DNA of 64,000 nucleotides from Tubiluchus corallicola (GCA_030141605.1 JAQGDQ010002385.1:1-64000); one strand, 5' to 3'; shown: positions 3,593-50,980, counted from the first letter of the stretch. Numbers and translations are program-made. The notes: a model not told the origin generated them from the letters alone.

Positions 3593-3661
3593 AAAAACTC
3601 AATATAATACACAATCCATAATCAATATATACTCAAATCAACAATAGCATCATAAAAAATA

Positions 3662-3706: not shown

Positions 3707-3707
3707 C

Positions 3708-4028: not shown

Positions 4029-4096
4029 AAATACCCCCCCGTAAATAACTCACTCATCACTCCAAATATGAAAACAACTTACTTGAAGAAATCACT

Positions 4097-21449: not shown

Positions 21450-22343
21450 CTAAATTGGCGACAACAAATGCACATTGGTGATAAGATTACGAACTCCATG
21501 TGCGTGATCTTCATCAAATGGATTATCAGATAGCCAATCAGCAAGCGTTCTGATGTCTATCTTAAGCACTTTAGGACGGACGCTCCAGGTTACCTGAAAA
21601 GGTGAAGCTTTTTCGTTGTAAACAGGGCCAGTAGTGGAACCACTATAAACAACTGGAGTGCCAAGATTATCAGGTAAGTTTGGTACTTGATTGCGACCTG
21701 CTATATTTTTAATGCTAGTCATTTTAATAAAATCAGCACCTCCCTTAGAAACTAAAACGCCAATCACCGCTTCAACACGCAATTGAGGATTTTTAACTTC
21801 TGCACTAAAACAGGTGCCCAAACCGTTACCTAAAGTGCCCTTGGCTGTAGAATATACAAAATGAATTTCAATAGTATCACCAGGTCTCAAGCTACCGTGT
21901 TCGCTCTGGCCAACCTTATAGTTAACAGGCGCTACCTCAGCAGACGTCAACATGCCATCATACTTAAAACCTGTCCCATAACCTTTGCCATTACCATTCC
22001 CCGCATAAGTCGTGAATTCGCCACCTTTATGCTCCGCATTTTTATGAAAATGAATATCACAAAGCGTCATACTCGTAACAGGGGGAGCAGCACTAAAAGG
22101 ATGTCTATTTTCGCCCCTCGGATCATCAATGTCACGCGGTGACTGAGGACCATAACCTTTCCCATGGGTTGACATTTTTAAATTTAACCTCTGTTTTTCA
22201 ATAATATCGTCAGAAACAGAATTTTCTCCAGCCATCGCACAGGATAAAATTGAAAATGTGCCAAAAATAGTAGCACTCATTAAAGAAAAAGATTTGCTTA
22301 TCATGATAACACCTGCAAGTTTAATGGTTAGAAATGTACGCAT
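21450..22343 (-). CDS. Delta-class carbonic anhydrase (secreted)
   Basis: LCDIHFHKNAEHK, GDTIEIHFVY, NPQLRVE, YSGSTTG and HAHGVR motifs; signal-peptide-like N-terminus. Confidence 0.8.
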   Translation of the reverse strand: MRTFLTIKLAGVIMISKSFSLMSATIFGTFSILSCAMAGENSVSDDIIEKQRLNLKMSTHGKGYGPQSPRDIDDPRGENRHPFSAAPPVTSMTLCDIHFHKNAEHKGGEFTTYAGNGNGKGYGTGFKYDGMLTSAEVAPVNYKVGQSEHGSLRPGDTIEIHFVYSTAKGTLGNGLGTCFSAEVKNPQLRVEAVIGVLVSKGGADFIKMTSIKNIAGRNQVPNLPDNLGTPVVYSGSTTGPVYNEKASPFQVTWSVRPKVLKIDIRTLADWLSDNPFDEDHAHGVRNLITNVHLLSPI

Positions 22344-23607: not shown

Positions 23608-23970
23608 CCTGAGAATAGATTAAGCTGCTGATAGAGTTCGTTATTGATTTAAAATACTTTTTAATTTGCACTTTCGTATGCCTATAAATAAAGATTTTAT
23701 TGATTATATTTGCGAACAAGTCGCAAAAGTAAGAGATATCACAAGCCGAAGGCATTGATTTTTAAGGGTTCTTATTTCTGGTCACGGGGAGATCTCCTAG
23801 AAAAACAGAGAGCATTTAGCGGAAATTTAAGCCTCAAACATCACAATATACTGAGACAAAAAATGTCTTAAATAGAATCTCGCCTAGCTCTAAAAGCTTA
23901 CAAACACTGGCTTTTAGGAACTAGCTTAACTATATTTCGGGGAATATACGAAAAGTTAGAAAATAATAAA

Positions 23971-24008
23971 CTGGCGGTGGATTCGAATCCCGTTAACAAC
24001 CGTTCTCT
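23971..24008 (-). other. Possible att-like tRNA 3'-end remnant at the prophage boundary
   Basis: Minus strand CGGGATTCGAATCCACCGCCA (T-loop plus CCGCCA end); lies just left of the first phage-type gene. Confidence 0.3.
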
Positions 24009-24288: not shown

Positions 24289-24549
24289 ATGCAAAAACAA
24301 ATATATTTAAGTGAACACGAACTGGCTGAAAAATGGGGGATATCTCCTAGAACTTTACAACGCTGGAGGTGGCTTAACCAAGGGCCAAACTACCTTAAAA
24401 TCGGAGGTCGCGTCAGATACAGACCTGAAGATGTAGATGCTTTTGAGAAGAAGCGTTTCTGCCAGATACAGGACAATCCCAATAATGATAATGCCAACGT
24501 TTCTGAGGAGTACGGATACAGTATCACGCTTAATGGCCAGAAGCTATAA
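24289..24549 (+). CDS. Excisionase/AlpA-like HTH DNA-binding protein
   Basis: LSEHELAEKWGISPRTLQRWR...GPNYLKIGGRVRYR; AAAGGA RBS. Confidence 0.85.
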   Translation: MQKQIYLSEHELAEKWGISPRTLQRWRWLNQGPNYLKIGGRVRYRPEDVDAFEKKRFCQIQDNPNNDNANVSEEYGYSITLNGQKL

Positions 24550-25205
24550 GGCACCATAAGTTGACCCTTATTTCGTTTAAGGGTCATTATACGGTGCTTT
24601 ACGCTTCTTTCAAATGCATCCACTTCCAAGCTCTTTTTCGCAATATTGTAAACACCCTCCCAGCAATCCACACAAGGAATATTGCTGTCTTGATAACTGT
24701 TGTGCGGATGCTTTATAAGGATTGATAACAATCCCAGTTTCTCACCAAGCACGGCATTCTCAAACTTATCCTCAATCCAAAGAAGTCCAGAGTTTTTATA
24801 GCGTGACAAGGCTTCTGTCTTATCACCTGCAGTTGGCAGGCAGACCAGTTCTTTAAAAATACCTTTTCCAAAAACGGTTTCAAGATTGTGGAGGCGTAAT
24901 GCTTTTGCATGCTCTGCTTCACTAAGCGCTGTAATCGCAACAAAGTGCCAGCCTTCCTGAAACATCTTCCGCACATAATAAACGGCGTTTCTGATTGGCT
25001 CTAGCATTCCCTGTTGTAAACAGTGATTGAATTCTTCAACGAGCTTCATGCCTGCTTCTTGTGATACGCCAAGTCTATGGGCAATATCATAGACCTTTTC
25101 TGTCGCATGTTTTGTAACCATACCTCTTTCTCTTGCCCAAGCATTAAAGCCTTTTTCCCAGTCTAATAAAACGCCGTCAACATCGGTCAGAATAATCTTG
25201 CTCAT
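24390..25205 (-). CDS. HAD-superfamily phosphatase/5'-nucleotidase-like protein (T4 gp30.2-like)
   Basis: IILTDVDGVLLDW (DxD motif I), AITA, K, WIEDK..NA (motif IV); AAGGAG RBS; C-terminal tail overlaps the HTH gene antisense. Confidence 0.82.
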   Translation of the reverse strand: MSKIILTDVDGVLLDWEKGFNAWARERGMVTKHATEKVYDIAHRLGVSQEAGMKLVEEFNHCLQQGMLEPIRNAVYYVRKMFQEGWHFVAITALSEAEHAKALRLHNLETVFGKGIFKELVCLPTAGDKTEALSRYKNSGLLWIEDKFENAVLGEKLGLLSILIKHPHNSYQDSNIPCVDCWEGVYNIAKKSLEVDAFERSVKHRIMTLKRNKGQLMVPYSFWPLSVILYPYSSETLALSLLGLSCIWQKRFFSKASTSSGLYLTRPPILR

Positions 25206-25253
25206 GCGATCTCCTTCTATTGTTAAAGATGCTCACAATATACTTGATATTTG

Positions 25254-25268
25254 CGTCTGAAATGGACG
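25254..25268 (-). promoter_or_regulatory. DriD-type operator box for the HAD gene
   Basis: Minus strand CGTC-CATTTCA-GACG, followed 11 nt later by TATATT (25242-25237). Confidence 0.65.
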
Positions 25269-25294
25269 TGTATTGTGTAGTTCAATTTTATTTA

Positions 25295-25309
25295 CGTCCA
25301 TAAATGTCG
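25295..25309 (+). promoter_or_regulatory. DriD-type operator box for the thermonuclease-DUF2779 operon
   Basis: CGTC-CATAAAT-GTCG, followed 11 nt later by TATTTT (25321-25326). Confidence 0.65.
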
Positions 25310-25348
25310 CTTATGAAGTTTATTTTTATTGAAAAATTGGAGGCGATT

Positions 25349-25810
25349 ATGTTAAAACTATTGAAGATTGTTTTGATTTGTTTGTTTTTTTCTTCTCCCG
25401 CTTATGCTGGGATAAAGGTTGTCGATGGTGATAGCTTGAAGATCAATGGAGCAAAAGTAAGGCTGTATGGCCTTGATGCTCCTGAGCATGATCAAACTTG
25501 CAAAGCAGATAGCTCTGAATACTCTTGTGGGCAGGATGCCAAGATAGCTCTTCAAGGTCTCATAACGGATGAAACCTTCTGTGTTATCAAGGGTGGAGAT
25601 CGTTACAAAAGGGTTCTGGCTATTTGTTATAACGGCAATAAGGATATCAATGCAGAGCTTGTAAGAAGAGGTTTTGCGGTGGCTTACGTCCGATATGCAA
25701 AAGATTATGTGAAACAGGAAAGCGAAGCAAGACAAAACAAAGCCGGTATATGGCAAGGAGAATTTATAAATCCTGAAGACTACAGGAAAAGGAAAAAGCA
25801 TGGCAAGTAA
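25349..25810 (+). CDS. Thermonuclease (SNase family) with signal peptide
   Basis: VVDGDSL, VRLYGLDAPE, DRYKRVLA, NAELVRRGFA, GIWQG; GGAGG RBS before ATG 25349; signal ending AYA. Confidence 0.92.
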   Translation: MLKLLKIVLICLFFSSPAYAGIKVVDGDSLKINGAKVRLYGLDAPEHDQTCKADSSEYSCGQDAKIALQGLITDETFCVIKGGDRYKRVLAICYNGNKDINAELVRRGFAVAYVRYAKDYVKQESEARQNKAGIWQGEFINPEDYRKRKKHGK

Positions 25811-27284
25811 ACCGAAAATTTCAAAATCACAATATGTTAAGGGGCTGCAGTGTCCCAAGGCACTTTGGTTCTATCGTCACCGTAAAGAACTCAAACCACC
25901 CATTGATCCTGCTACGCAAGCTCGCTTTGATGCGGGGAACGAGATCGGGCAACTTGCCATGGCGTATTTTGAAGGTGGCGTTGAAGTTACCGATGCTTAT
26001 TGGGAGATTGAGAAAGCCGTTGCATCCACTCAAAACTTCATCAAACAAGGACATGAGATCATCTTTGAGGCAACGGCTCTTCATCCAATAGACGGTGGTT
26101 ATTCCCGCATTGATGTTTTGCGTAAAGTACCGAACAGTGATGAATGGGATTTGATTGAGGTCAAAAGCTCTACTGGGGTTAAGGATTATCACATCGATGA
26201 TATGTCGTTTCAATATCATGTCTTCTTTGCCGCAGGTTATAAAATCAGGAAATGTCTGATGATGGTGATTGATAATACTTACGTCCGACAAGGTGAGATT
26301 GAGCCTCAAAAACTCTTCAAGCTGGAGGATATTTCAAACGAAGTCTTTGCCAAGCAAAGTGATGTTGATTACTGGGCAGCACAGCTGGGTTATGTTCTTG
26401 ATCGCAAGGATGAACCGGATATTAAAATTGGCGAGAGATGCTTCAATCCATTTGAGTGTGAATATCGCCACCATTGCTGGAAGCATATTCCAAAGTATTC
26501 GGTGTTTGATATTTATCAAAAGAAAAAGACGGGCGAGATCATCAATCAGATCGGAAGCTATGACATCAAAGACATTCCGCCAAACCTTTTTCCTAACGGA
26601 GCCAAAGCCATTGATGTTGATTGCTATCAATGCGATAAAGAGCATGTTGAGAAAGAGCCTATTCGTGAGTGGTTGGCCGGTCTTGAATATCCGCTTTATT
26701 ATCTGGACTATGAAACGCTCATGCCCGCTATTCCTTTGTTTGATGGCACACGACCTTTTCAGCAGGTACCATTTCAATTCTCGCTTCATGTGCAGGAAAG
26801 CCAAAATGCCGAGCTGAAACATTTTGAGTTTATTCACAAAGAGCAGTCTGATCCAAGAGAAGCCTTTGCCAAAGCATTGGTTGAGCTATGCGGAAAATCT
26901 GGCTCCGTGATTGTTTATAATCAAGGCTTTGAAATGGCACGCAATCGAGAGCTGGCTGATGATTTTCCACAATATGCAGATGGACTTCTTGCAATCAATG
27001 ATCGTGTCATTGACCTGCTGGAGCCATTTAAAAAGCGTTGGATTTACAGCCCGAAACAACAAGGGTCTGCATCGATTAAATATGTTTTGCCGGCTTTTAC
27101 CGATTTGAAATATGAAGATATGGGGATTGCGAATGGGCAAGAAGCGATGGATGGATATCTCGCCTTTGCAAAAGGAAATGTATCACCAGAGCAGTCGCAT
27201 ATTTTGTGGAAAAATCTATCTGAATACTGTAAGCTCGATACCTATGCAATGGTTGAGTTGCTGGAAATGTTGAAAAAGATATAA
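25800..27284 (+). CDS. DUF2779 protein: Cas4/RecB-like PD-(D/E)xK nuclease plus DEDD/RNase H-like exonuclease domain
   Basis: ISKS...QCPK, RIDVL..LIEVKSST, C..P..C.Y...C cluster; YLDYET, VYN..FE, YCKLDT. Confidence 0.85.
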   Translation: MASKPKISKSQYVKGLQCPKALWFYRHRKELKPPIDPATQARFDAGNEIGQLAMAYFEGGVEVTDAYWEIEKAVASTQNFIKQGHEIIFEATALHPIDGGYSRIDVLRKVPNSDEWDLIEVKSSTGVKDYHIDDMSFQYHVFFAAGYKIRKCLMMVIDNTYVRQGEIEPQKLFKLEDISNEVFAKQSDVDYWAAQLGYVLDRKDEPDIKIGERCFNPFECEYRHHCWKHIPKYSVFDIYQKKKTGEIINQIGSYDIKDIPPNLFPNGAKAIDVDCYQCDKEHVEKEPIREWLAGLEYPLYYLDYETLMPAIPLFDGTRPFQQVPFQFSLHVQESQNAELKHFEFIHKEQSDPREAFAKALVELCGKSGSVIVYNQGFEMARNRELADDFPQYADGLLAINDRVIDLLEPFKKRWIYSPKQQGSASIKYVLPAFTDLKYEDMGIANGQEAMDGYLAFAKGNVSPEQSHILWKNLSEYCKLDTYAMVELLEMLKKI

Positions 27285-27290
27285 GGGGAG

Positions 27291-29297
27291 CTAAGCCTGT
27301 TCTTTGTATTGATATTTTTTCTTGTCAACTTCACTAATAAATCTTGAGGGGTTATCAAAGAATGCGGCGTATGTTGCAAAATATGCTGGAGCCGTCAAAT
27401 AGAGGCTTTCTTTAGCACGGCTACAGGCTACATAAAACAATTTACGCTCTTCCTCAAGTTGCTCATAATCTTCAAACGATTTATAGTGAGGCACTGCTCC
27501 ATCTATGAGAGAAACAACAAAAACGGTATTCCATTCAAGTCCTTTTGCACTATGAATTGTTGAAATTGTTACGGAATCCTCATTGGGTTCTGCTGATGTG
27601 AAAACAGCCTTTGAATCGTTTGGTGGATCAAGAGCTAGGTTGGAAAGGAAATTTTCAATGTTTCCATATTCTGCACACAATCGTTTTAGAACTTTAAAAT
27701 CTTCAATTCGATTTTTCCAATCTTCTTCAACTTTCTTTAAGACCGGAGTGTAGTATTTTTCAATTATATCGAAAGCTGCAATTAATGATGGAGCTTCACT
27801 GGCAGAATTTAGTGCATCATATAGAAGTTTTATGTTTTCATTTTTCTTTACGTAAGAGCTATTTTTTAACGGCGTTAACTTTCCATCTTCATCCTGAATT
27901 TCTTTTGTAATTTTATTTGCCGTAACATTTCCAACACCCTCTAAGATTGTTACAATACGATGCCACGAAATAGCATCAAGTGGGTTCCATAGTATTTTCA
28001 AATAAGCTAAAATATCTTTAACATGTCGTTTTTCTATAAATTTTATTCCTCCTACCACAACAAATGGAATGCCTCTTTTAAGGAACTCTGCCTGCACAAA
28101 ATTTGAATGAAAAGAAGTTCTGCACAAGACAGCCATCTCTTTGTACTCAAGCCTCTCTTTTGATTTGATAATTTTATCTGCAATAAATTGAGCTTCCTGC
28201 TCTTCATTCGTACAGCGTATAAATTCAGGCTTTTTCCCTTTTCCCTTATCTTCAGAAAATAAATCCTTTTTATAACCAAGTGATATCTGATCGGAAACAT
28301 TATTAATAAATCCAAGTATACTTGGTGTGCTTCGATAATTTTGCTCTAGTTTTATAAGTTTAGCATTAGGGTATGTCTCACCAAATAGCAATATGTTCTC
28401 ATAATTTGCACCTCTAAACGCATAAATGCTTTGATTATCATCGCCAACTACCATTAATGAACAGAAATCTTTTTCCGCCAGTAAATCTATCAGTTCTTTT
28501 TGAGGAAGGTTGGTATCTTGGTATTCATCCACCATAATGTATTGGTATTTTTTATGGACGCTTTCTTTAAATCTAGAATTGGATTTTAGATGGTGATTTA
28601 TTTCGTCTATCAAATCATCATAATCATATAAGCTATTGGCTTTTTTATACTTGCTGTACATTTTAGAAAGCTCGAGTATTTCAGGAATGTAGCACTTAAA
28701 GTTAGGGTAATTCTGCTCTACAATTTTTTCTATAGGAATCAGCTTGTTTCGAGAGGAGGATATAATGTTTTGAATAACAGATTTTCTTGGGAATGGAATT
28801 TCCTCTTTTTTCTTCATACCAGCTTGCTTTTTTAGCAAATCAATTAAGTCCCTAGAATCCTCTTGATCAAGAATAGTAAATTTAGGGTTTATTCCAAGCA
28901 TTTTAGAATATCTTGCCAGTAGCATATTACAAAAAGAGTGAAAGGTTCCGCTTGTAACATTGTTTGAAATATCTCCACCTAACAGCTGGTTTACACGTTT
29001 TTTTATTTCCCCAGCCGCTTTTTTAGTAAATGTTAAAATAAGTATTTTTTCTGCACTTATGCCATTTTCAAGCAAAAAGCTTGTTCTGTATGTAAGTGTT
29101 CTGGTTTTTCCAGATCCTGCTCCTGCAATAACCAATGTTTTCCCATCAATCGTTGTTGCTGCCTCTAATTGCCCTGGATTTAACTCTTCTTGATATTTAA
29201 TCTTATATTCTTTATCTGTAAAATCTCTATTTTCTGTTGAAAAATTATTTTCAAGATTTGAAATTACGGTCTTAAGACGTTTAATTTTTGTTTCCAT
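27291..29297 (-). CDS. UvrD/Rep/PcrA-family SF1 helicase
   Basis: AGAGSGKT, VDEYQD, VGDDNQSIYAFRGA, LEQNYRS, TIHSAKGLEW, EERKLFYVACSRA. Confidence 0.95.
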   Translation of the reverse strand: METKIKRLKTVISNLENNFSTENRDFTDKEYKIKYQEELNPGQLEAATTIDGKTLVIAGAGSGKTRTLTYRTSFLLENGISAEKILILTFTKKAAGEIKKRVNQLLGGDISNNVTSGTFHSFCNMLLARYSKMLGINPKFTILDQEDSRDLIDLLKKQAGMKKKEEIPFPRKSVIQNIISSSRNKLIPIEKIVEQNYPNFKCYIPEILELSKMYSKYKKANSLYDYDDLIDEINHHLKSNSRFKESVHKKYQYIMVDEYQDTNLPQKELIDLLAEKDFCSLMVVGDDNQSIYAFRGANYENILLFGETYPNAKLIKLEQNYRSTPSILGFINNVSDQISLGYKKDLFSEDKGKGKKPEFIRCTNEEQEAQFIADKIIKSKERLEYKEMAVLCRTSFHSNFVQAEFLKRGIPFVVVGGIKFIEKRHVKDILAYLKILWNPLDAISWHRIVTILEGVGNVTANKITKEIQDEDGKLTPLKNSSYVKKNENIKLLYDALNSASEAPSLIAAFDIIEKYYTPVLKKVEEDWKNRIEDFKVLKRLCAEYGNIENFLSNLALDPPNDSKAVFTSAEPNEDSVTISTIHSAKGLEWNTVFVVSLIDGAVPHYKSFEDYEQLEEERKLFYVACSRAKESLYLTAPAYFATYAAFFDNPSRFISEVDKKKYQYKEQA

Positions 29298-30265
29298 TTA
29301 TTTACCTCCCCAAGCATCTCTTGATATTTCTGCTTTAAATGATCTGGGGCAATGATTTCAACATCCTTGCCCCAAGTGAACAGGTGCCAGCACATTTCCA
29401 TCCAACCTCCTGCCGTAAAGGTCACAAGCAATGATCCGTCGTCCTGCTCGTCAAAGACCTGTGTCGGGTGGAATTGATATTCTTTAGCACGCTCCGCAAC
29501 ATCACTTGAAAACTTCCACACAACCTTAAAAGGCTCTTCCTGAAACACTCCGAAAGACCTCTCGGCATAATTTTGCAAAGAGAATGAACGTTTGCGTGTG
29601 AAAGGCTTGTCTGTGATAACAGCTTCCTGAATATTGGAAAGGCTGAACATGCGGAAATCTTTCGCCTTATCGCACCAAGCAATCATGTAATGACGGTTTC
29701 CGTATAAAAATCCGTAAGGAGCGACAACGCGTTCGGATGTCTCTTCTTCGTGGATAGGTTCGCAAGTGATTTTAACTTTCAGGCAAGCTTTAACAGCATT
29801 GCGGAGTGTGTTTAAAACTTCCCCTTTAATCTTTAGTTTTGGTCCCGGACGCATCGCAAAACCTTCCGCCTCAAGCAAAGCTTCCAGGTCTGTTTCCAGT
29901 TTGGCTGCTTGATCGGCACGCACAATGCTTTTGATCTTGATCGCAAGGTTTTCAAGGATGTCTGCCGGCTCTTCCAAGTTATCACGACGCAAGCGAGTAA
30001 TAGCAGCCTGAAGCTCTGCAAGCTCATCCGCATCAAAGCGAGTAAGCGAAGAGAATTTGCCGGATGGAATACGCCAACGCTTATTACGCCCTTCTTTAAT
30101 CTCAATCATCTGAGGCACAAGTCGCCCAATCACATCACGCATACGTTCAGCCGTACGACGACTAACGTTAAACTCCTGTGCAATGTCTGTTGTTGAAACG
30201 CCCTCGGCAGTTGATTGCATCCAGATCGCAAGTTTTAGAAGATTTTCAGCTTGTTCAAAGCGCAT
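29264..30265 (-). CDS. HTH-WYL-WCX transcription regulator, DriD-like
   Basis: VSRRTAERMRD..PQM..KRWRIPSG resembles the recalled Caulobacter DriD N-terminus; WYL core R.VAPYGFLYGNRHYMIA...FRMFSL..I; CWHLFTWG. Confidence 0.9.
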   Translation of the reverse strand: MRFEQAENLLKLAIWMQSTAEGVSTTDIAQEFNVSRRTAERMRDVIGRLVPQMIEIKEGRNKRWRIPSGKFSSLTRFDADELAELQAAITRLRRDNLEEPADILENLAIKIKSIVRADQAAKLETDLEALLEAEGFAMRPGPKLKIKGEVLNTLRNAVKACLKVKITCEPIHEEETSERVVAPYGFLYGNRHYMIAWCDKAKDFRMFSLSNIQEAVITDKPFTRKRSFSLQNYAERSFGVFQEEPFKVVWKFSSDVAERAKEYQFHPTQVFDEQDDGSLLVTFTAGGWMEMCWHLFTWGKDVEIIAPDHLKQKYQEMLGEVNKWKQKLNVLRP

Positions 30266-30346
30266 AACCTGTTCTCTATAAATTAAGCTGTTTTCTTTAT
30301 TTTTAAGACAATCAAGGTCAAATGTCTAGCAAAAAGATAAAACAGT

Positions 30347-30361
30347 CGTCCATGAGTGTCG
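30347..30361. promoter_or_regulatory. Third DriD-type box in the WYL/hsdM divergent region
   Basis: CGTC-CATGAGT-GTCG; 13 of 15 nt identical to the box at 25295. Confidence 0.6.
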
Positions 30362-30380: not shown

Positions 30381-30409
30381 TTGCAATTTCGAAGTTTTTC
30401 TTTTATGTT
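30381..30409 (+). promoter_or_regulatory. Putative sigma70 promoter of hsdMSR
   Basis: TTGCAA-17 nt-TATGTT. Confidence 0.4.
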
Positions 30410-30499: not shown

Positions 30500-32047
30500 A
30501 TGACAAGTACTCAACAACGTGCGGCACTGCAGCGCCAGATCTGGCAGATCGCCAACGATGTACGGGGCGCAGTAGATGGCTGGGATTTTAAGCAGTATGT
30601 ACTCGGTACGCTCTTTTATCGTTTTATCAGTGAAAATTTTGCCAGCTACATCGAAGCCGGTGATGACAGTATTCACTATGCAGAACTGGACGATGGGGTC
30701 ATCACTCCGGAAATCAAAGATGATGCCGTTAAAACCAAGGGCTATTTCATCTACCCCAGCCAGCTGTTTGCGAATATTGCAAAGGGTGCAAATACCAACG
30801 ACAGTCTGAATACCGACCTCGCCGCCATCTTTACCGCCATTGAAAGCTCTGCCAACGGTTACCCGTCGGAAGTGGATATTAAAGGCCTGTTTGCCGACTT
30901 TGATACCACCAGCAACCGCCTCGGAAATACCGTAGCCGACAAGAACACCCGTCTGGCCGCTGTGCTCAAAGGGGTGGCCGGGCTTGACTTCGGTGATTTT
31001 CACGGCAGCCAGATCGACCTGTTTGGCGATGCCTACGAGTTCCTGATCTCAAACTATGCCGCCAATGCCGGTAAATCCGGCGGTGAGTTTTTCACCCCGC
31101 AGCATGTTTCAAAACTGATCGCACAACTTGCTATGCATAAACAAGAACATGTAAACAAGATTTTTGACCCTGCCTGCGGTTCCGGTTCATTGTTGCTACA
31201 GGCTAAAAAACATTTTGATGCCCATATTGTTGAAGAAGGATTTTTCGGTCAAGAGCTTAATCATACTACATACAACTTGGCACGCATGAATATGTTTTTG
31301 CATAATATAAACTATGATAAGTTTAATATTCAGCTTGGGGATACACTGATCAATCCACACTTTGGCGATGACAAACCTTTTGATGCAATTGTTTCCAATC
31401 CACCTTATTCAGTGAAATGGATTGGATCAGATGATCCAACATTGATTAACGATGATCGTTTTGCACCTGCTGGCGTACTTGCCCCTAAATCCAAGGCAGA
31501 CTTTGCCTTTGTTCTCCATGCATTAAGTTATTTATCAAGCAAAGGACGTGCAGCAATTGTTTGCTTCCCGGGTATTTTTTACCGTGGCGGAGCGGAACAA
31601 AAAATCCGAAAATACTTGGTTGATAATAACTATGTTGAAACCGTGATTTCACTTGCACCAAACTTATTCTATGGAACAACTATTGCCGTAACGATTTTAG
31701 TTCTGGCTAAAAATAAGCCTGATACGAACGTTCAGTTTATTGATGCCAGTGGTGAAGAATTCTTTAAAAAGGCAACCAATACAAACATTATGCAGGATGA
31801 TCATATTCAAAAAGTTATGGATATATTCGACAGCAAAGAGAATGTTGCTCATACTGCTGAATCTGTGCCATATGAAAAAATTGTGGCAAATGAGTATAAT
31901 TTGTCGGTTAGCTCTTATGTTGAGGCAAGAGACACGCGTGAGGTTATTGATATTGCAAAATTAAACACCGAGATAAAAACAACGGTTGGAAAGATAGACC
32001 AGCTCCGCAATGATATTGACGCGATTATTACGGAGATCGATGCATGA
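30500..32047 (+). CDS. hsdM: Type I RM methyltransferase subunit (type IC)
   Basis: [20 protein letters not shown]; probable start 30500. Confidence 0.97.
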
Positions 32048-33294
32048 GTAATATGAGTTTTATAGAAAAGTTATTGGGCGGTGCAGAGGTTGAATGGTTG
32101 CCTTTGGGGGAAGTAACTCAATACGAACAACCGACTAAGTATCTTGTAAAAAACAAGAATTATAGCGATGAATTTGAAACACCTGTTTTGACAGCAGGAA
32201 AAACTTTTATTCTTGGATACACGGACGAAACTAACGGAATTAATAAGGCATCAGAAAATCCTGTAATCATTTTTGATGATTTTACTACTGCTAATAAATG
32301 GGTTGACTTCGACTTTAAAGCAAAATCATCCGCAATGAAGATGATTTCGTCTAGTAATAAAACTAAGTTTATTCTAAAATATGTGTATTATTGGATGAAC
32401 ACTTTACCGAGTGATTTGATTGATGGAGATCATAAGCGTCAATGGATCAGTAATTTTTGCAACAAAAAAATCCCCATCCCATGCCCTGATAATCCAAAGA
32501 AGTCGCTTGAGATTCAAGGGGAAATTGTCCGAATTTTGGACAATTTCACGGAGCTTACAGCGGAGCTTACAGCGGAGCTTACAGCGGAGCTTACAGCTCG
32601 TAAAAAACAATACAACTACTATCGCGACCAACTCCTTACTTTTGATGAGGATGAAGTTGAATGGAAACCTTTGGGTGATGTTGGTGATTTAGTGCGAGGT
32701 AATGGATTGCCAAAAACAGATTTTACGGAGAATGGCGTGCCAGCTATCCATTATGGTCAAATTTACACCTATTATGGCCTATCAACAAAATCTACTATTT
32801 CGTTTGTTTCTCCTGAAACTGCAGAAAAATTACGGAAAGTAAATACTGGTGATGTTATTATAACAAACACAAGCGAAAACTTCGAAGATGTAGGAAAATC
32901 TTTGGTCTATCTAGGTGAACAACAAGCTGTTACTGGAGGGCATGCAACAATATTTAAGCCTAGCAAAAAGATTTTGGGCAAATACTTCGCCTATTTTACT
33001 CAAACTGCAACATTTGAAAAATTAAAAAGAAAATATGCAAAAGGAACAAAAGTTCTTGATGTTTCTGCAACTGACATGGCGAAAATAGAAATTCCCATCC
33101 CATACCCAAACAACCCCGAAAAGTCTTTGGCTGAACAAGCCCGCATTGTTGCAATACTCGATAAGTTTGATACTCTTACAAACTCGATAAGCGAAGGGCT
33201 TCCACACGAGATTGAACTCCGCCAAAAACAATATGAATATTATAGAGATTTACTGCTAAATTTCCCAAAACCTGAGGATCAAAAATATGCCTGA
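32044..33294 (+). CDS. hsdS: Type I RM specificity subunit (EcoR124I family)
   Basis: Two TRDs, IPIP..SLEIQ.EIVRILD conserved regions, TAEL repeats, [10 protein letters not shown]. Confidence 0.96.
32549..32597 (+). repeat. 12-bp tandem repeat (GAGCTTACAGCG, ~4 units) encoding three TAEL repeats
   Basis: Seen directly in the sequence. Confidence 0.95.
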
Positions 33295-36200
33295 ACAAAC
33301 TAAACCTATCGCAGAGTCAAAAAACTTTATCGTCCTTGATAAATATACCAAAGAATGGGAGATTGCTGAAAGCTATCAAAGTGAAGCAGATTTGGAGCGT
33401 GAGCTTATCCGTGATTTAGTTAATCAAGGTTATGAGTTTTTACCTGAACTAACAACCCCAGATGCGATGCTTTCTAATGTGAGATTGCAGTTGCAAGCTT
33501 TGAACAACGTAATCTTTTCTGAAGGTGAATGGTTACGATTTGTTGAAACTTACTTAGATAAACCCAGTGATAATCTGATCGATAAAACCCGTAAAATCCA
33601 TGACGATTATATCCATGATTTCACATTTGATGATGGTCGCATTCAAAACATCTACCTGCTTGATAAAGCAAATATCTCTCGCAATAAGGTGCAAGTAATA
33701 AAACAATTTGAACAAACCGGCACACATGCAAACCGCTATGACGTAACAATATTGGTTAACGGTTTGCCATTGGTTCAGATCGAACTTAAAAAGCGTGGTG
33801 TTGCTATCCGTGAGGCTTTTAACCAAGTCCACCATTATAGCAAAGAAAGCTTTAACTCTGAGCATTCTTTGTTTAAATATTTGCAAATGTTTGTTATTTC
33901 CAATGGTACGGATAGTCGTTATTTTGCCAACACAACAAAGCGTAATAAAAACAGCTTTGATTTTACGATGAATTGGGCAAAGTCAGATAATAACCTGATT
34001 AAAGATTTAAAAGATTTTACGGCGACTTTCTTTCAGAAAAACACCTTGCTCAATGTATTGCTTCATTACTCTGTTTTTGATGTTAATGATACATTATTGA
34101 TTATGCGTCCTTATCAGATTGCGGCTACTGAGCGTATTTTATGGAAAGTCAAAAGTTCGTATCAGGCTAAAAATTGGTGTAAGCCTGAAAGCGGCGGATA
34201 TGTGTGGCATACAACAGGTTCCGGAAAAACTTTGACCAGCTTTAAAGCTGCACGTTTGGCCACAGAACTTGATTTCATTGATAAGGTGTTTTTTGTGGTT
34301 GATAGAAAAGACCTCGACTATCAAACCATGAAAGAATATCAACGTTTTTCACCTGATAGCGTGAATGGTTCTGATAGCACTGCGGGGTTAAAGAAAAATC
34401 TTAGTAAAGATGATAACAAAATCATCGTTACCACAATCCAAAAGCTCAACAACCTGATGAAAAGTGAAAATGATTTAGATATTTATAACAAACAGGTGGT
34501 GTTTATTTTTGATGAATGCCATCGCAGCCAGTTTGGTGAGGCTCAGAAAAACCTAAAGAAGAAGTTTAAGCAGTTTTATCAATTTGGTTTCACAGGTACG
34601 CCAATATTTCCACATAACGCTTTGGGATCTGAAACAACAGCCAGTGTTTTTGGACGTGAGCTACATTCCTATGTAATTACCGATGCTATTCGTGATGAAA
34701 AGGTTTTGAAATTTAAGGTGGATTACAACGATGTTCGTCCGCAATTTAAAGCGATTGAATCGGAGCGAGATGAGAAAAAATTGAGTGCTGCTGAAAATAA
34801 AAAAGCCTTTTTGCATCCTGATCGTATTCGCGAAATATCCGGGTATATCTTAAATAGCTTTCGTCAAAAAACCCATCGTTTGCAAGGAGGCAACAAGGGC
34901 TTTAATGCTATGTTTGCCGTTAATAGTGTGGATGCTGCTAAGATGTATTATGAAGCCCTGAATTCATTGCAGGCTGATAGCGAGAAATCATTAAAGATTG
35001 CTACAATCTTTTCATTCAATGCGAACGAAGAACAAGATGCCGTTGGTGATATTCCTGATGAAAGCTTTGATGTTTCCGCAATGAACAGCAGCGCCAAAGA
35101 ATTCTTAAGTGCAGCTATTAAGGACTATAATGCATTTTTTAAAACCAATTTCAGCGTAGATAGCAAAGGTTTCCAAAATTATTACCGTGATTTAGCAAAG
35201 CGTGTTAAGTCACAGGAAATTGATTTGTTAATTGTGGTGGGCATGTTCTTAACCGGATTTGATGCCCCGACACTGAACACCTTGTTTGTCGATAAAAACC
35301 TGCGCTATCACGGTTTGATGCAGGCATTTTCCCGCACCAATCGCATCTATGACGCAACCAAGACATTCGGCAATATCGTTACTTTCCGGGATTTAGAGCA
35401 GGCTACTGTAGATGCCATTACTCTCTTTGGCGATAAAAACACCAAAAACGTCGTGCTTGAAAAAAGTTATAAGGAATACATGGATGGGTTTTGTGACGCA
35501 ACAACAGGGGAAGCACGCCGTGGTTTTGTAGATGTCGTGGCAGAATTGGAGCAACGCTTTCCAAACCCTGAGACAATAGTTAAGGAAGCAGACAAGAAAG
35601 CCTTTGCCAAACTCTTTGGTGAATATTTGCGCGTAGAAAATATACTTCAAAACTATGATGAATTTGCCAGTTTAAAAGCATTGCAAGCAATTGATCAAAA
35701 CGATGAGATTGCGATACAAGAATTTAAAGAAAAGCATTATTTGAATGATGATGACTTGGAGGTATTAACAGCTATTAAAATTCCTGCCGAACGTAAAATT
35801 CAAGATTATAGATCCGCATACAATGATATTCGGGACTGGCTACGCAAAGAAAAAGCTTCCGATGAGCAAGAAAAATCCTCTGTAGATTGGGAAGATGTTG
35901 TGTTTGAAGTCGACTTGCTTAAATCTCAAGAGATCAATCTAGACTACATATTAGAGCAAATATTTGAGAATAATAAAAAGGTAAAAGACAAGTCTGAGCT
36001 CGTTGAAGATGTGCAAAGAATGATCCGCTCCAGCCTTGGCAATCGAGCTAAAGAGAGTTTGTTGGTTGATTTTATTAACCAAACAGATCTTGATAAAATT
36101 GGCGATAAAGCAAGTGTGATTGATGCTTTCTTTACTTTTGCTCAAAGTGAACAAAAACGTGAAGCGGAGGAATTAATCAGCTCTGAAAGCTTAGATAAAG

Positions 36201-36388
36201 AAGCCGCAAAGCGTTATATAACTGCTTCAATTAAACGTGAATTTGCGACTGAAAACGGAACAGAGTTAAACTCTATATTGCCTAAAATGAGTCCTCTAAA
36301 CCCAGAATACCTAACCAAGAAACAAACCGTTTTTCAAAAGATATCTGCATTCGTTGAAAAATTTAAAGGCGTAGGCGGAGAGATTTAA
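33287..36388 (+). CDS. hsdR: Type I RM restriction subunit (EcoR124I-like)
   Basis: [17 protein letters not shown] nuclease motif, [35 protein letters not shown]. Confidence 0.97.
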
Positions 36389-36415: not shown

Positions 36416-37699
36416 ATGGCAGCACATCATACAACAAAAGAACAACGCCGAATGCTTGCAGACAGGATGAAAAATCCTGATGATGAGTTAAAGCTCGTTA
36501 TTGTTAGGGATATGTGGCTGACAGGGTTTGATGCTCCTTCTATGCATACGCTTTATATTGATAAGCCTATGAAGGGACATAATCTTATGCAGGCAATCGC
36601 TCGGGTAAACCGTGTTTATAAGGATAAGCCGGGTGGACTTGTTGTTGATTATCTCGGTATTGCTTCGGATTTGAAAAAGGCATTGTCCTTTTATTCAGAT
36701 AGTGGCGGAAAAGGTGACCCTGCAATTGCTCAGGAACAAGCCGTTAGCATGATGTTGGAAAAACTGGAAGTGGTCTCTCAAATGTTTCATGGCTTTACTT
36801 ATGAGGATTATTTCAATGCGGACACTTCGACAAAACTTTCAACAATCCTTGCTGCTGAAAACCATATTTTAGGGCTTGAAAATGGAAAGAAGAGATTTAT
36901 TGATGAAGTATCCGCTCTTTCACAAGCTCTGGCAATTGCCATTCCACATGAACAGGCAATGGATGTTAAAGAAGAAGTCGCTTTCTTCCAAGCCATAAAA
37001 GCTAGGTTATGTAAATTTGATAGCAATGCATCCGGAAAAACAGATGAAGAAATAGAAACAGCGATAAGACAAGTTATTGATGAAGCTCTTGTTTCAAATC
37101 AGGTGGTGGATGTGTTTGATGCTGCCGGCATTAAAAAGCCTGATATCTCAATTTTATCCGAAGACTTCTTGCTTGAGATTAAGGGGATGGAACATAAAAA
37201 TGTTGCCCTTGAGACATTGAAGAAACTTCTCAATGATGAAATCAAAACCCGCACGAAAAAGAACCTTGTGCAGAGCCGATCTTTGATGGAGATGTTGGAA
37301 AATTCTATTAAGAAATACCATAACAAAGTGCTGACCGCAGCGGAGGTTATTGATGAGCTGATAAAATTAAGCAAAGATATTCAAAAGATGGATAAAGAAC
37401 CGGAAGAAATGGGATTATCCGAGTTTGAATACGCTTTTTACACAGCTGTTGCAAACAATGACAGTGCAAGAGAGTTGATGCAACAAGATAAACTGAGAGA
37501 GTTAGCAGTTGTTCTGACTGAAAAAATCAAACAAAATGCATCTATTGATTGGACGATTAAAGAAAGCGTGAAATCAAAACTAAAGGTGATCGTAAAAAGA
37601 ACACTACGTCATTTCGGCTATCCACCAGACATGCAAAAACTTGCAACTGAAACTGTTTTGAAACAGGCTGAATTAATCGCAAATGAAGTGATAGGATAA
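36416..37699 (+). pseudogene. hsdR: C-terminal half of a second, different HsdR (DUF3387-type tail)
   Basis: Has MWLTGFDAP and [10 protein letters not shown] plus DWT...L...GYPPD tail, but lacks nuclease, Walker A and DEAD motifs. Confidence 0.85.
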
Positions 37700-37708
37700 G
37701 GAGAAAAT

Positions 37709-39775
37709 ATGCAAGCACAAGAAAAAACACTTATAGAATTTTTAAGAGATAAACAGCAATTTACAATTCCTATTTATCAAAGAACATACAGCTGGACATC
37801 AAAACAATGCCTTAAGCTTTGGGAAGATATTCAAGAAATTGCAAATAATGGTGAAGTTGAATATCACTTTATGGGATCTATTGTGAGAATTAAAAGAAAG
37901 CTCGACACAAGCGAGATTTCTCAACAAATAATCATTGATGGCCAGCAAAGAATTACCACTCTGTTATTGCTTATCTCGGCGCTTATTCAAGCAACACAAA
38001 GCAAAGAACGTTCTGAAGAATTGCAAGAATTATATCTGATTAACCGACATGGAAAAGATGAACTCAAATATAAAATGCTACTTACACAACAGGACAAATC
38101 ATCTTTGATCGATATTATAGAAAATCGTCCTAACGCAGTATTAAATTCAAAAAGAATTAAAGAGAACTTTGAATTTTTCAAAGAAGAGATAGCAAAATCA
38201 AACCCTGAAAAAATATATGCAGGAATTAGAAAACTTATGATTGTAGATATTTCTCTCGATCCTGAACATGATAATCCCCAACTTATATTTGAAAGCCTAA
38301 ACTCAACAGGACTGGAATTATCACAAGCAGATCTTATCCGGAATTATGTTTTAATGGGATTAGCCCCTAAGCATCAAGAGGAGCTTTATCATAATTACTG
38401 GAGAGCGATGGAAAAAGACTTTGGCCAAACAGACTATACACTCTTCTTTGATCGTTTTATGCGTGATTATTTGACCATTAAAACAGGGACAATCCCAAAT
38501 ATCAAAAATGTTTATGAAACATTTAAAATTTATTTTTCTAAGCAAGGAGGTATTGATAACGTTGATAATGTTATTGCTGATGTACACAAGTATTCAAAAT
38601 ACTTCGTACGAATGGCTTTAGAAAAAGAAGAAAATATAAAATTAAGAGAAGCGTTTTCTGATCTTAACGATTTAAAGGTTGATGTTGCCTACCCATTTTT
38701 GCTGAATATTTATAGTGATTTTGAAGAAGGTACTATCAATCAAGAAGCTTTCTTGGATGTTTTAAACTTCATTCAAAGCTACGTATTTAGAAGATTTGTG
38801 TGTGGGATTCCTACTAATTCCTTAAATAAAACTTTTGCAACTTTATATAAATCAATAGATAAAGAAAATTACTTAGACAGCCTAAAAGCCGCTTTTGTTT
38901 TCATGTCAAATTACAGACGTTTCCCAAGTGATATTGAGTTTACTAAAGAGCTGAAAGAAAAAGATTTATACAACACAAAGAATAGAAATTTCTGGTTAAG
39001 AAGATTTGAAAATTATAACAGAAAAGAACGTGTCAAAGTAGAAGAATATACCATTGAACATATCATGCCTCAAAATACCAACCTTTCAAATGAATGGAAA
39101 GAAATGTTGGGAGAAAATTGGAAATACGTTCATGAAAATTACTTGCACACAATTGGCAATTTAACTTTAACAGGTTATAACTCAGAGCTAAGTGATAAAC
39201 CTTTCTTTCAAAAGAAAAGTATGGAAGGTGGTTTTGACGATAGTCCTTTAAGACTTAACAGAAGTTTGCAACAAGTTTCTGATTGGAATGAAATAACGAT
39301 CAAAGAAAGGGCTGAGGTGCTTGCAAAAACCATGATCGAAATATGGGCATATCCGACGGTATCAGAAGAAGTTCTAGAAAAATATAAACCTGAAATAGAG
39401 AAGAAAGAAGGAAAAGTCTATACAATTGAAGATCATCCTTTCCTAACAGAAGGACCAATGAAAGAATTATTTGAAATCGTTCGAAAAAGAATTCTTAACA
39501 TTGATGCTTCTGTTAAAGAGGAGTTTTTAAAGCTGTATGTTGCTTATAAGGCGGCTACAAACTTTGTAGATATAGTGCCTCAGAAAAGCAAACTGCGTCT
39601 TTCTTTAAATATAGACTATGAAGAAATATATGACCCTAAAAACATTTGCACAGACGTTACAAACAAAGGTCGCTGGGGCAATGGAAATACAGAGGTTAAT
39701 TTATCCTCTCCTGAACAATTAGAGGACGTTCTTGATCTGATCAAACAGGCATTTGAAAAAAACTCAGAAAGTTAA
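37709..39775 (+). CDS. GmrSD-family (DUF262+DUF1524) restriction enzyme with extra C-terminal domain (DUF5655-like)
   Basis: IPIYQR.YSW, IIDGQQRITT, IFESLNSTG; HNH-type TIEHIMPQ..IGNLTL..N; C-terminal KLYVAYK...GRWGNG. Confidence 0.9.
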   Translation: MQAQEKTLIEFLRDKQQFTIPIYQRTYSWTSKQCLKLWEDIQEIANNGEVEYHFMGSIVRIKRKLDTSEISQQIIIDGQQRITTLLLLISALIQATQSKERSEELQELYLINRHGKDELKYKMLLTQQDKSSLIDIIENRPNAVLNSKRIKENFEFFKEEIAKSNPEKIYAGIRKLMIVDISLDPEHDNPQLIFESLNSTGLELSQADLIRNYVLMGLAPKHQEELYHNYWRAMEKDFGQTDYTLFFDRFMRDYLTIKTGTIPNIKNVYETFKIYFSKQGGIDNVDNVIADVHKYSKYFVRMALEKEENIKLREAFSDLNDLKVDVAYPFLLNIYSDFEEGTINQEAFLDVLNFIQSYVFRRFVCGIPTNSLNKTFATLYKSIDKENYLDSLKAAFVFMSNYRRFPSDIEFTKELKEKDLYNTKNRNFWLRRFENYNRKERVKVEEYTIEHIMPQNTNLSNEWKEMLGENWKYVHENYLHTIGNLTLTGYNSELSDKPFFQKKSMEGGFDDSPLRLNRSLQQVSDWNEITIKERAEVLAKTMIEIWAYPTVSEEVLEKYKPEIEKKEGKVYTIEDHPFLTEGPMKELFEIVRKRILNIDASVKEEFLKLYVAYKAATNFVDIVPQKSKLRLSLNIDYEEIYDPKNICTDVTNKGRWGNGNTEVNLSSPEQLEDVLDLIKQAFEKNSES

Positions 39776-49288: not shown

Positions 49289-50980
49289 CTAAAATAGCAT
49301 TGTGTAAAGAGCGTCGTTTCTATGCAGATTGGCAGATTGCGTTCCGCACTGGCCATAAGTGTTATGTCCTGAAGACAGAACACGACCGTCTTCGGTTAAG
49401 GCATAAAGCGTTCCTTCCGAAGAATTTCCTGCAAAAACAGCGTCGATTATCCTGATGAAAGGACTTTCAAGAGGATTTTTTATGCGTGTAAATACAGGGT
49501 TTTCAGCAGTAAAAGCATTTCCGATTCCAAGCTGACCGTTACCGTTATAACCAACACCCCACAATCTTCCTTCCTTATCAATGATAACTATTTGTCCGTA
49601 TGAATAACTGCCTCCCAAGATAACCTTGTCAATATTACCCTGAAACAATGCATTTATTTTCAAAGGAGCATTACGGTGAGTTGTATCTCCATGACCGAGA
49701 ACACCGTAGCTATTGAATCCCCAAGTCCAGAGTTCGTCGTTAATATCAAGAGCGACGCTATATCCGTAAAATCCTCCTCCTGCATAAACATTCTTGATGA
49801 CAGGCAAACTGCCGCTTATAAGGGTAAAGCTTGTACGGTTTGTGGTATCGCCGACACCAAGCTGTCCGTACCCGTTATCACCTGCGGAATAAACCGTTCC
49901 ATCATTAAGAAGCACCAATACGTGGGTATTAACCTGAGCTCCTCCATCAGTAGCATCTCCTGCATTTGCAAAAACCTGTTTTACATTCGAAAGGTTTGTA
50001 ACCTTGGTCGGGCTGTAACGATGTGTCGTATCGCCCTGTCCGAGTTGCCCCTGCGTATTATATCCCCAAGCCCAGAGTTCATCATTTCCATCAATAGCAA
50101 AAACGGAAGTATAGTTTGAAGTGCTCACAGAGACCTGTTTTACTCCGGTTAAGTTTCCACATCTGACAGGAACGTAGCTTACCGTTGTTGTTCCGTTTCC
50201 AAGCTGTCCATAAGCATTGTATCCGCAGGCATAAAGCTCGCCTGTTGTTGAAATGAAGTAAACTGTTGAAGCACTCCATACACAGTCAGTAGCACAGATG
50301 ATTTCCTTAATCTGAATGCCGTTATCAACAAACCAGTCAATTCTTATTGCATGATGACGGTTTAATGTATCACCGTGTCCCAGAACGCCCTGTTCATTAT
50401 GTCCCCATGAATAAACCTGTCCGTCTTCTGTCAAGGCAAAGAAACTCGCATAGTTTCTGTAAATTGCCTTAAAAGGTGCAGTAGGTGGTTTATCAGGATT
50501 AACAGGAACAGTTTGTGGTAAATATGTATGGTGATTATTTGTATCGGCATTTGAGTAATTCAACGCACGACCGATTGCTCTCATTGTGCCGTCATTCATC
50601 AAAAATGCGGCAACGTGCTGATTACCATAATTTCCTCCTTGCATAAGTTTTTTTACGGTCATTCCTGGACGACTTTCTTGGCTTCCCCAAGCAGGCAAAC
50701 CGTTTTTGATACGAAGAAAAGAGTTTTCAGCACCTGCATTAAGAGCAACGGACTCTGTGCCGTTATGAATAACAATATCACCAATCTGTGAGAGCTGATC
50801 CGTTCCTGCTGCAAATAAATTCCAGTAGAATGGATCAGTCGGCGGATATCCCATGCCGTTCTGCACGCAGATGTATGTGCTTCCTGAAAAGCTGACTAAA
50901 TCATCCTTTTCATATGCTTCGGCAGGATTGTAAGCTCCTTTCCATACCAGTTTTATTTTTCCAAGATTAAGAGTTGTCAT
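49289..50980 (-). CDS. RCC1-repeat beta-propeller fibre/receptor-binding protein
   Basis: Repeated G.vy.WG.N..GqLG.GdT units; N-terminal NLGKIK..WKGAY...Y..DD.V module. Confidence 0.85.
   Translation of the reverse strand: MTTLNLGKIKLVWKGAYNPAEAYEKDDLVSFSGSTYICVQNGMGYPPTDPFYWNLFAAGTDQLSQIGDIVIHNGTESVALNAGAENSFLRIKNGLPAWGSQESRPGMTVKKLMQGGNYGNQHVAAFLMNDGTMRAIGRALNYSNADTNNHHTYLPQTVPVNPDKPPTAPFKAIYRNYASFFALTEDGQVYSWGHNEQGVLGHGDTLNRHHAIRIDWFVDNGIQIKEIICATDCVWSASTVYFISTTGELYACGYNAYGQLGNGTTTVSYVPVRCGNLTGVKQVSVSTSNYTSVFAIDGNDELWAWGYNTQGQLGQGDTTHRYSPTKVTNLSNVKQVFANAGDATDGGAQVNTHVLVLLNDGTVYSAGDNGYGQLGVGDTTNRTSFTLISGSLPVIKNVYAGGGFYGYSVALDINDELWTWGFNSYGVLGHGDTTHRNAPLKINALFQGNIDKVILGGSYSYGQIVIIDKEGRLWGVGYNGNGQLGIGNAFTAENPVFTRIKNPLESPFIRIIDAVFAGNSSEGTLYALTEDGRVLSSGHNTYGQCGTQSANLHRNDALYTMLF

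Follow-up and report, generated by a model that had tools for sequence, protein, structure and literature searches.

A probable prophage-borne regulon of the DriD type

The DNA considered here is a 64,000-nucleotide (nt) stretch from the Tubiluchus corallicola assembly (GCA_030141605.1, JAQGDQ010002385.1:1-64000), hereafter the window. Between positions 24,289 and 30,361 it contains a prophage cassette in which a WYL-domain regulator of the DriD family and three operator boxes probably form a small local regulon that is likely to induce a nuclease and nucleotidase cargo. The identity of the regulator, the boxes and their spacing, the catalytic residues of the cargo and the recurrence of the promoter type in relatives are all legible in the sequence. 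In the mechanism that we propose, a WYL dimer bound to single-stranded DNA (ssDNA) would recruit RNA polymerase (RNAP) to two divergent promoters, inducing a deoxynucleotidase of the HAD superfamily, an exported SNase and the DUF2779 double nuclease, probably with the purpose of degrading incoming or damaged DNA. The SNase would cut DNA outside the cytoplasm, ends, whether linear or single-stranded, would be trimmed from either side by DUF2779, and the HAD protein would dephosphorylate the released deoxynucleoside monophosphates, preventing their recycling, so that together the three could degrade DNA to nucleosides. The mobile unit would then be the switch, that is the WYL gene and its boxes, with its targets as exchangeable cargo.

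The regulator gene (29264..30265, minus strand) encodes a wHTH-WYL-WCX protein, with the WYL and WCX domains both scoring above the Pfam cut-offs. It aligns with Caulobacter crescentus DriD over residues 1-320 with a single gap (E 1.5e-57), the next WYL family match being PafC at 5e-6 and the BrxR-type structure 7tb5 reaching 5e-4. The resemblance to DriD, proposed for the N-terminus alone in an original prediction made for this locus, thus extends along the full length. Residues R2, R36, R37, T38, E40, R41, R43 and K62 are identical to those of DriD while R8 is replaced by Asn, and the recognition helix is identical throughout, including R37, E40 and R41, which are described as reading bases (PMC10853764, the source of the base and phosphate contact roles). 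The same account gives the Caulobacter consensus as CGAC-N7-GTCG, as the original prediction had stated, and places it upstream of 68 of 69 homologues at a mean distance of about 17 nt; here the own-gene box ends 81 nt before the WYL ATG. Judged by homology, recognition helix, box and geometry, the regulator is a member of the DriD family.

Operator boxes and promoter geometry

The pattern CGWC-N7-GWCG has exactly three matches in the window, each 15 bp long and at the position originally predicted: box 1 at 25254..25268 (minus strand), box 2 at 25295..25309 (plus strand) and box 3 at 30347..30361. Shuffled sequences gave a mean of 0.65 matches and only one of 100 shuffles reached three (Poisson p about 0.03), so that the count by itself is a modest signal. 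The boxes are all intergenic; together they span 5.1 kb, and one of them precedes the WYL start by 81 nt. Downstream of boxes 1 and 2, at a distance of exactly 11 nt, there is in each case a predicted -10 hexamer of the form TAnnnT (TATATT at 25237..25242 on the minus strand for box 1, TATTTT at 25321..25326 on the plus strand for box 2), again as predicted; the two boxes are candidate activator sites for the HAD gene and for SNase-DUF2779, respectively. The background frequency of TAnnnT in these AT-rich gaps is about 0.03 per position. Sixteen sites in the window retain the G2/C4/G12/C14 core and deviate elsewhere at no more than one position; among them the hexamer at 11 nt is confined to boxes 1 and 2. 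A generic promoter scan of the window returned nothing above shuffled sequence and picked up neither box promoter. Contigs from three other sequencing runs (X3-X5; X-numbers denote contigs of other runs, L-numbers related loci and G001 a related genome) span boxes 1 and 2.

In published DriD promoters the protein covers the -35 position, and its distance to the -10 element is constant (PMC13004042). Counting in the Caulobacter promoters printed there, we find 11 nt to CAAGGT at didA and to CAATCT at CCNA_03891, with bapE ambiguous. The spacing at boxes 1 and 2 matches that of didA and CCNA_03891, and the geometry is therefore that of published DriD promoters. Together with the enrichment in relatives described below, this upholds the earlier suggestion of an activator arrangement at the -35 position. 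From these features we infer that the regulator binds the boxes and activates transcription, with ssDNA as the trigger.

The promoter type of box, 11 nt and -10 hexamer is conserved in relatives. In 88 related loci, a set that excludes 27 redundant and 17 HAD-only loci, 18 of 44 distinct CGNC-N7-GNCG sites with a local GC content of at most 0.45 have TAnnnT at offset 11. Other offsets from 4 to 21 yield between 0 and 8 among the same 44 sites, and a reversed-pattern control yields 0/21 at offset 11; without the GC filter, the peak at offset 11 comprises 23 of 812 sites. Single-sequence searches of viral contigs with WYL and DUF2779 found no match; alignment-based searches did, and 5 of 11 WYL loci on viral contigs have a box followed after 11 nt by [TC]AnnnT about 2.1 kb upstream of the WYL gene. 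Pooled over the viral contigs, TAnnnT lies at offset 11 in two of five low-GC sites and in 3/27 at GC up to 0.55, a set too small to be informative.

In L136 the box promoter heads a 670-residue open reading frame (ORF) resembling a double-AAA protein. A recurrent unit can be seen, with the box promoter followed by a double-AAA ATPase of 670-700 residues and then, usually, by a WYL gene: it occurs in L136 (5882-8942), L137, L139, L141, L143, L041 (846-3925), L089 (2136-4240) and L069 (4791-9462), the ORFs having been scanned against Pfam in L041, L089 and L069. The double-AAA ATPase is probably a more constant target of DriD boxes than DUF2779. In the islands of L091-L093, ankyrin-repeat, SprT-like and unknown genes next to DUF2779 are driven by box promoters, of which an island has as many as five. 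On the Rhodoferax plasmid of L069, a gene for an FtsZ-like protein (3562-4752) stands behind a box promoter, divergent from AAA-DUF2779-WYL, and recalls the link of DriD to cell-division arrest. In five Rhodospirillales loci, within L003-L018, a conserved box lies in a 253-residue ORF about 300 nt upstream of WYL, with CAYCAT 11 nt from it, directed away from WYL.

The cargo enzymes

The earlier assignment of a HAD protein, a thermonuclease and a Cas4-like/DEDD protein agrees with Pfam matches, conserved residues and structural models, although two gene boundaries needed correction. The HAD gene (24599..25205, minus strand) belongs to the T4 30.2-type family (PHROG 420, E 5e-32), which has matches in 1460 phage records. 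The homologue in a T4-like phage lies two genes upstream of DNA ligase, a position from which we take the name 30.2 to derive. The reading frame originally predicted to run to 24390 (271 residues) is a read-through, due to a single surplus base near 24617: two other runs have contigs that are shorter by one base at 24617/24618, the frame of relatives stops at 24599-24601 and four near-identical relatives have 201 residues. A 271-residue protein was consequently rejected as the normal product. D8, D10, K129 and D146 are invariant in 44 sequences. The structural model matches NT5C deoxyribonucleotidases with a TM-score of about 0.7, the Pfam NT5C score being below cut-off, and there was no meaningful sequence match in the PDB. 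With the DxD, Lys and Asp motifs and an NT5C-type fold in the model, the protein appears to be 5'(3')-deoxyribonucleotidase-like, its substrate being a prediction. The 401 alphaproteobacterial genomes discussed below yielded only a single weak match.

The SNase gene (25349..25810, plus strand; Pfam SNase, E 5e-17) was originally placed at 25304 but starts at 25349, behind the ribosome-binding site (RBS) GGAGG. Its product has a hydrophobic N-terminus ending, by eye, in AYA, and therefore likely carries a signal peptide and is exported. It retains residues aligned to the Asp, Arg, Asp, Glu and Arg positions that we take to be catalytic.

The DUF2779 gene (25800..27284, plus strand), identified by Pfam and predicted structure, gave a confident model (pLDDT 94). 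Residues 1-231 match Cas4 (7mi4; Z 13.5, rmsd 3.7, 187 aligned residues), as a Cas4/RecE-like domain, and residues 296-491 correspond to PolB proofreading domains (Z 14.7, rmsd 2.8, 165 aligned) and, with Z 13.0, to MrfB. D105, E120 and K122, the four cysteines C18, C214, C220 and C226, and E305, E378, Y476 and D480 are kept in 30 of 30 sequences, and D303 in 29 of 30. As modelled, the protein is predicted to combine an N-terminal Cas4-like PD-(D/E)xK nuclease with a C-terminal DEDD 3'-5' exonuclease, the four invariant cysteines forming a predicted Fe-S site. DUF2779 had no match in the phage record collection and no sequence match in the PDB. No PADLOC model matches DUF2779 or the HAD protein, and the effector set fits none of the anti-phage systems defined there.

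Conservation of the gene set

Linkage between DUF2779 and DriD-like regulators is significant. In 401 alphaproteobacterial genomes, taken as one identical set for both searches, there are 13 with DUF2779, 32 with a DriD-like gene (E up to 1e-45) and five with both, always within 10 kb; DriD-like genes thus occur in five of the 13 DUF2779-positive genomes and in 27 of the 388 others (Fisher p 0.002, or 0.009 without G001). Among 27 metagenomic DUF2779 loci, five have a DriD-like WYL gene (44-55%), another five a more distant WYL and three a strict box within 130 nt, but none of the 27 carries an SNase or HAD domain. The gene neighbourhood is hence conserved in part for DUF2779 and DriD but not for the accompanying SNase, HAD and UvrD genes, and a fixed system of this composition finds no support: SNase and HAD are missing from all 27 loci and UvrD is swapped elsewhere. 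It is only in near-identical prophages that HAD, SNase, DUF2779 and WYL stand together; the stretch from the HAD gene across the gap and the SNase gene to the start of DUF2779 is covered by contigs of three other studies. Members of the HAD, DUF2779 and WYL clusters are found on contigs of equal size (7433 and 10473, with HAD and DUF2779 also at 6292 and 18541), which hints at linkage of the three, short of proof.

In L038 and L060, whose DUF2779 is 91-92% identical and which have neither SNase nor HAD, paired boxes 41-42 nt apart lie directly before DUF2779. Box 1 is degenerate in both, with no TAnnnT after it. Box 2 lies directly upstream of DUF2779 with the -10 at 11 nt in L038 and in L041 and without it in L060, while in L040 a box followed after 11 nt by TATGGT heads a WYL-DUF2779 operon. 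L001, whose WYL is 97% and DUF2779 95% identical and which has the same endolysin at a distance of 10 kb, has lost both box 1 and box 2 entirely. Eight plasmid regions that we viewed have DUF2779 among Qat, HipA, AAA and WYL genes. DUF2779, a family of which 6527 relatives were found among 7999 candidates scored, is thus a general defence-island gene captured repeatedly by DriD boxes, and a recurrent but minority target of them. On a Sphingobium plasmid (L065, 8789-11674), DUF2779, an annotated 5'-nucleotidase, a DriD-like WYL gene and a TM0106 nuclease are adjacent. This is a second cluster of nuclease, nucleotidase and WYL genes, with a different nucleotidase; no box promoter was found in it.

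Box 3 and the restriction-modification operon

Box 3 lies between the WYL gene and hsdM, and is predicted to serve the promoter of the restriction-modification (RM) operon, WYL autoregulation or both. The original prediction recognized the core that it shares with boxes 1 and 2 but overlooked that it faces this type I operon, hsdM-hsdS-hsdR (30500..36388, plus strand; Pfam), its candidate target. A weak predicted sigma70 promoter for hsdM, TTGCAA-17-TATGTT (30381..30409, plus strand), is found 19 nt downstream of the box and scores below the scanner threshold. No TAnnnT lies 11 nt from box 3 in either direction, nor did the original prediction claim one, and self-activation of WYL through box 3 was rejected for want of a -10 at that distance; the box may instead autorepress the WYL gene. 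L001 and L002 have box 3 too, their only substitutions in it being at the W position and in the spacer. They also retain the hsdM promoter; immediately behind its -10 the similarity breaks off and the RM operons differ, the box facing a type I hsdM in L002 and an SNF2-helicase/type III methylase operon in L001. In the gammaproteobacterial L002, the WYL-box 3-hsdM unit has 79% DNA identity and the WYL gene is frameshifted, which reads as a cross-class transfer followed by decay.

A comparable arrangement is reported at Caulobacter recA, where the DriD site, as a 20-bp motif, lies 17 nt before the -35 (PMC9186387); restated for the 15-bp core, this becomes 19 nt. The promoter alignment of a later structural paper leaves recA out (PMC13004042). 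DdaA, whose box has the core found here and lies some 50 bp upstream of start sites, is described as activating a type I RM operon and improving phage resistance (PMC12392091). By analogy, the RM operon facing box 3, of whatever type, is probably stimulated through it, although RM activation, while plausible, is less secure than the roles of boxes 1 and 2.

The UvrD slot

The UvrD/PcrA-like helicase gene (27291..29297, minus strand; Pfam) overlaps the 3' end of WYL and has its RBS inside it, so that co-transcription of the two, as originally proposed, is likely. Membership of the regulon did not hold: it was rejected, as the transcript has no activator box and the slot is exchangeable. In L001 a split VRR-NUC gene occupies the same RBS and start, and an X4 contig joins 27257 to 29310, skipping UvrD. 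The GC content of the gene is 0.33, compared with 0.42-0.46 in its neighbours, and the WYL promoter side shows no activator geometry; driD is likewise described as not self-activated in Caulobacter (PMC13004042). Given the divergent GC, the swaps in L001 and X4 and the lack of activator geometry, UvrD is a passenger, probably co-transcribed with WYL but not activated by it. A Gabija system was considered and rejected: UvrD matches GajB models, but there is no GajA-like neighbour among the ORFs scanned.

Prophage context

The cassette and its surroundings run in the order HTH_17, HAD, a 143-nt gap, SNase, DUF2779, UvrD, WYL, a 234-nt gap and the RM operon, followed by GmrSD and then by lysis, tail, head and terminase genes. 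The predicted association with a prophage is supported by HTH_17 and PHROG matches, phage late genes, contigs of other runs and the endolysin in L001. The HTH_17 excisionase/AlpA-like gene (24289..24549, plus strand; Pfam E 1e-9, PHROG 66), on the prophage side of the cassette, has no box and has an 87% identical copy in L038. Where the HTH_17 and HAD genes converge, an inverted repeat (24562-24586) lies between them; it is kept in L038 and L060 and is possibly a bidirectional terminator. A degenerate tRNA-Ser-like 3' end (23960..23992, minus strand) resembles the 3' end and downstream bases of tRNA-Ser in L060; similarity to L038 starts at 23960 and an X3 contig has a loose end at 23972. To judge from this, it is the probable left attachment scar of the element. 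A delta-class carbonic anhydrase-like gene (21450-22343; Pfam CA_like, E 5e-65) lies on the host side.

The complete hsdR is followed directly by an orphan fragment (36416-37699) encoding the C-terminal half of another type I HsdR, which is HindI-like. High-depth X3 contigs cover this half but not hsdM-S-R, and the type I operon may for that reason have replaced an earlier RM system. A GmrSD-like modification-dependent nuclease with DUF5655 (37709-39775), covered in X3 and X4, lies between the RM and lysis genes. The region 40093-64000 is a minus-strand late region of myovirus type, with terminase, portal, head protease, capsid, baseplate, sheath, tape measure and endolysin genes; within it, 49289-50980 encodes an RCC1-repeat tail-associated protein.

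Weighing the alternatives

Several observations count against a working ssDNA-inducible regulon. DriD is reported to have six conserved ssDNA contacts, Y168, R176, R178, Y192, R204 and R207 (PMC9186387), of which R178, Y192 and R204 alone are kept here (3/6), compared with four of six in 12 close relatives. R176 and R207 are Ser across the whole clade and, in this copy, residue 168 is Cys where 12/12 close and 115/118 distant homologues have Tyr. The Y168A change is described as cutting ssDNA binding about tenfold and abolishing activation in vivo (PMC9186387). The RNAP-contact patch is altered too (G18S, R120A, R121A, R122K, P125T), with A20, E21 and E128 kept, and these positions also vary among the 118 homologues; Y240 and W206 are conservatively replaced by Phe. 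On the promoter side, many of the 18 sites with offset 11 come from related genomes (L091-L093) and are not fully independent. With a relaxed core, only five of 61 DUF2779 starts have the box promoter within 200 nt, spacers of 9 and 10 nt being found five and six times, and it is absent from all 17 viral HAD loci and all three viral SNase loci. The expected boxes upstream of homologous genes thus appeared in L038, L041, L060 and L040 but not generally at DUF2779 starts, nor at the viral HAD and SNase loci.

With Tyr168 lost, and its loss abolishing activation by DriD, this WYL copy may be deaf or poorly responsive to ssDNA. The original prediction, right about the DriD identity of its ssDNA-triggered regulator, overlooked this private change. 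There is an appreciable minority chance, in a form compatible with the regulon that we favour, that the circuit is real in the lineage while this copy is decaying and effectively uninducible, its genes at a basal level. Besides Tyr168Cys, a private one-base insertion at the HAD 3' end, the orphan hsdR fragment at 36416-37699 and the lack of any integrase seen near the left scar are in keeping with decay. Yet no damage is seen in the three boxes, the two -10 hexamers or any catalytic residue, DdaA is described as functioning with an altered ssDNA pocket (PMC12392091) and either private change may be an assembly error; the Tyr base is present at 29763 in X3 and X4 contigs. The circuit may thus be intact in the lineage and either impaired or mis-assembled in this copy.

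It is rather unlikely that the regulon serves DNA-damage clean-up in prophage or host, by end trimming and sanitising of the nucleotide pool, or prophage induction, and not anti-phage defence. The genes that DriD is reported to control serve repair and arrest, with recJ and the nuclease bapE among them (PMC9186387), the C-terminal domain of DUF2779 resembles the repair nuclease MrfB, the HAD family is common in lytic T4-like phages and LexA was not found in four of five related incomplete genomes, G001 included. Against this, an exported nuclease could not repair the chromosome, and no box lies upstream of recA in G001 or before phage structural genes. The neighbours of relatives are mostly defence-island genes (RM I/III, McrBC, GmrSD, Qat, HipA, OLD+UvrD), and it is this neighbourhood that suggests a role in superinfection or foreign-DNA defence.

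We think it very unlikely that the WYL protein represses these promoters in the manner of CapW or BrxR, with ssDNA releasing repression. Those defence-island WYL regulators are described as repressors, and the DriD RNAP-contact patch is poorly kept here, but the sequence is DriD-like and not BrxR-like, and the box stands in place of the -35, at the DriD spacing, so that a promoter freed of its repressor would lack a usable -35. Least credible of all are chance matches, or boxes that serve a DriD/DdaA paralogue of the host and no other regulator: the modest box count, taken alone, and the short contigs L038 and L060, with boxes but no WYL gene within the contig, would fit, but the boxes are clustered, box 3 is kept in L001 and L002, offset 11 forms a peak and the sole DriD-like gene of G001 (E up to 1e-45) is the prophage copy.

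Significance and comparison with known systems

If a local regulon is indeed present, the rule of box, 11 nt and -10 would find ssDNA-inducible genes of mobile elements and would let defence and repair candidates be mined without reference to defence-island proximity. It would also give a handle on two widespread uncharacterised families, DUF2779 and the T4 30.2-like HAD proteins, and the cassette plausibly represents an earlier stage in the path of WYL activators to global regulators, as proposed for DdaA. A bolder and distinctly tentative extension is that alphaproteobacterial temperate phages and islands, several without detectable LexA, carry a portable ssDNA alarm, a DriD gene with box-promoter sockets that would make any gene infection-inducible. 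In this prophage the sockets would be filled with the RM operon and with a defence that destroys DNA in three layers: the exported SNase, the Fe-S/DEDD double exonuclease and a deoxynucleotidase captured from T4-like phages. If true, this would provide a first function for DUF2779 and the T4 30.2 family.

Among known systems, CapW and BrxR share the setting of a WYL regulator in a mobile defence island, and CapW is described as sensing ssDNA; both are however reported as repressors and are distant in sequence, whereas the geometry here is that of an activator. The Cas4-like plus DEDD architecture of DUF2779, with its catalytic residues, has already been described for MMSYN1_0389 (PMC13621843, PMC3985635), a relative reported as quasi-essential in JCVI-syn3.0. 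That protein keeps two of the cysteines while DUF2779 here has all four, and the accounts cited describe no regulator for it.

The closest parallels are DdaA and DriD. DdaA of the Moraxellaceae, compared here by its published description (PMC12392091), shares the core box, CGWCA-N5-TGWCG, and is a WYL activator of type I RM and CRISPR-Cas after damage; the same paper notes that genes near ddaA are regulated by ancestral copies. From box 3 to the predicted hsdM start is about 55-62 nt, compared with 'about 50 bp' for the DdaA box. DdaA differs as a separate clade and a global SOS replacement. Set against its consensus, the CGWC/GWCG core is present in 3/3 boxes here, the inner A/T pair on one side only in each, and the flanking positions are mostly not A/T, unlike those of the DdaA consensus.

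With Caulobacter DriD, as described in PMC9186387, PMC10853764 and PMC13004042, the regulator shares an end-to-end wHTH-3HB-WYL-WCX alignment, an identical recognition helix and the CGNC-N7-GNCG box. It also shares the placement of the box over the -35 with 11 nt to the -10, a box near its own gene without self-activation geometry, and a nuclease target. DriD is however chromosomal and global (didA, recA, recJ, bapE and dnaG), whereas here the regulator is prophage-borne and local (DUF2779, SNase and deoxynucleotidase), with a diverged ssDNA pocket and RNAP patch and, in this copy, no Tyr168. We found no description of the cassette as such among the papers that searches of the open literature listed. 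To that extent the statement that no system of this composition had been described still stands, but its logic, with a WYL activator, a shared box and defence targets, is already set out for DdaA (PMC12392091). We class the cassette as a local variant, carried on a prophage, of the regulon known from DriD and DdaA: the regulatory principle is known, and what differs from the accounts cited is the prophage-borne, local and plug-in character, together with the cargo.

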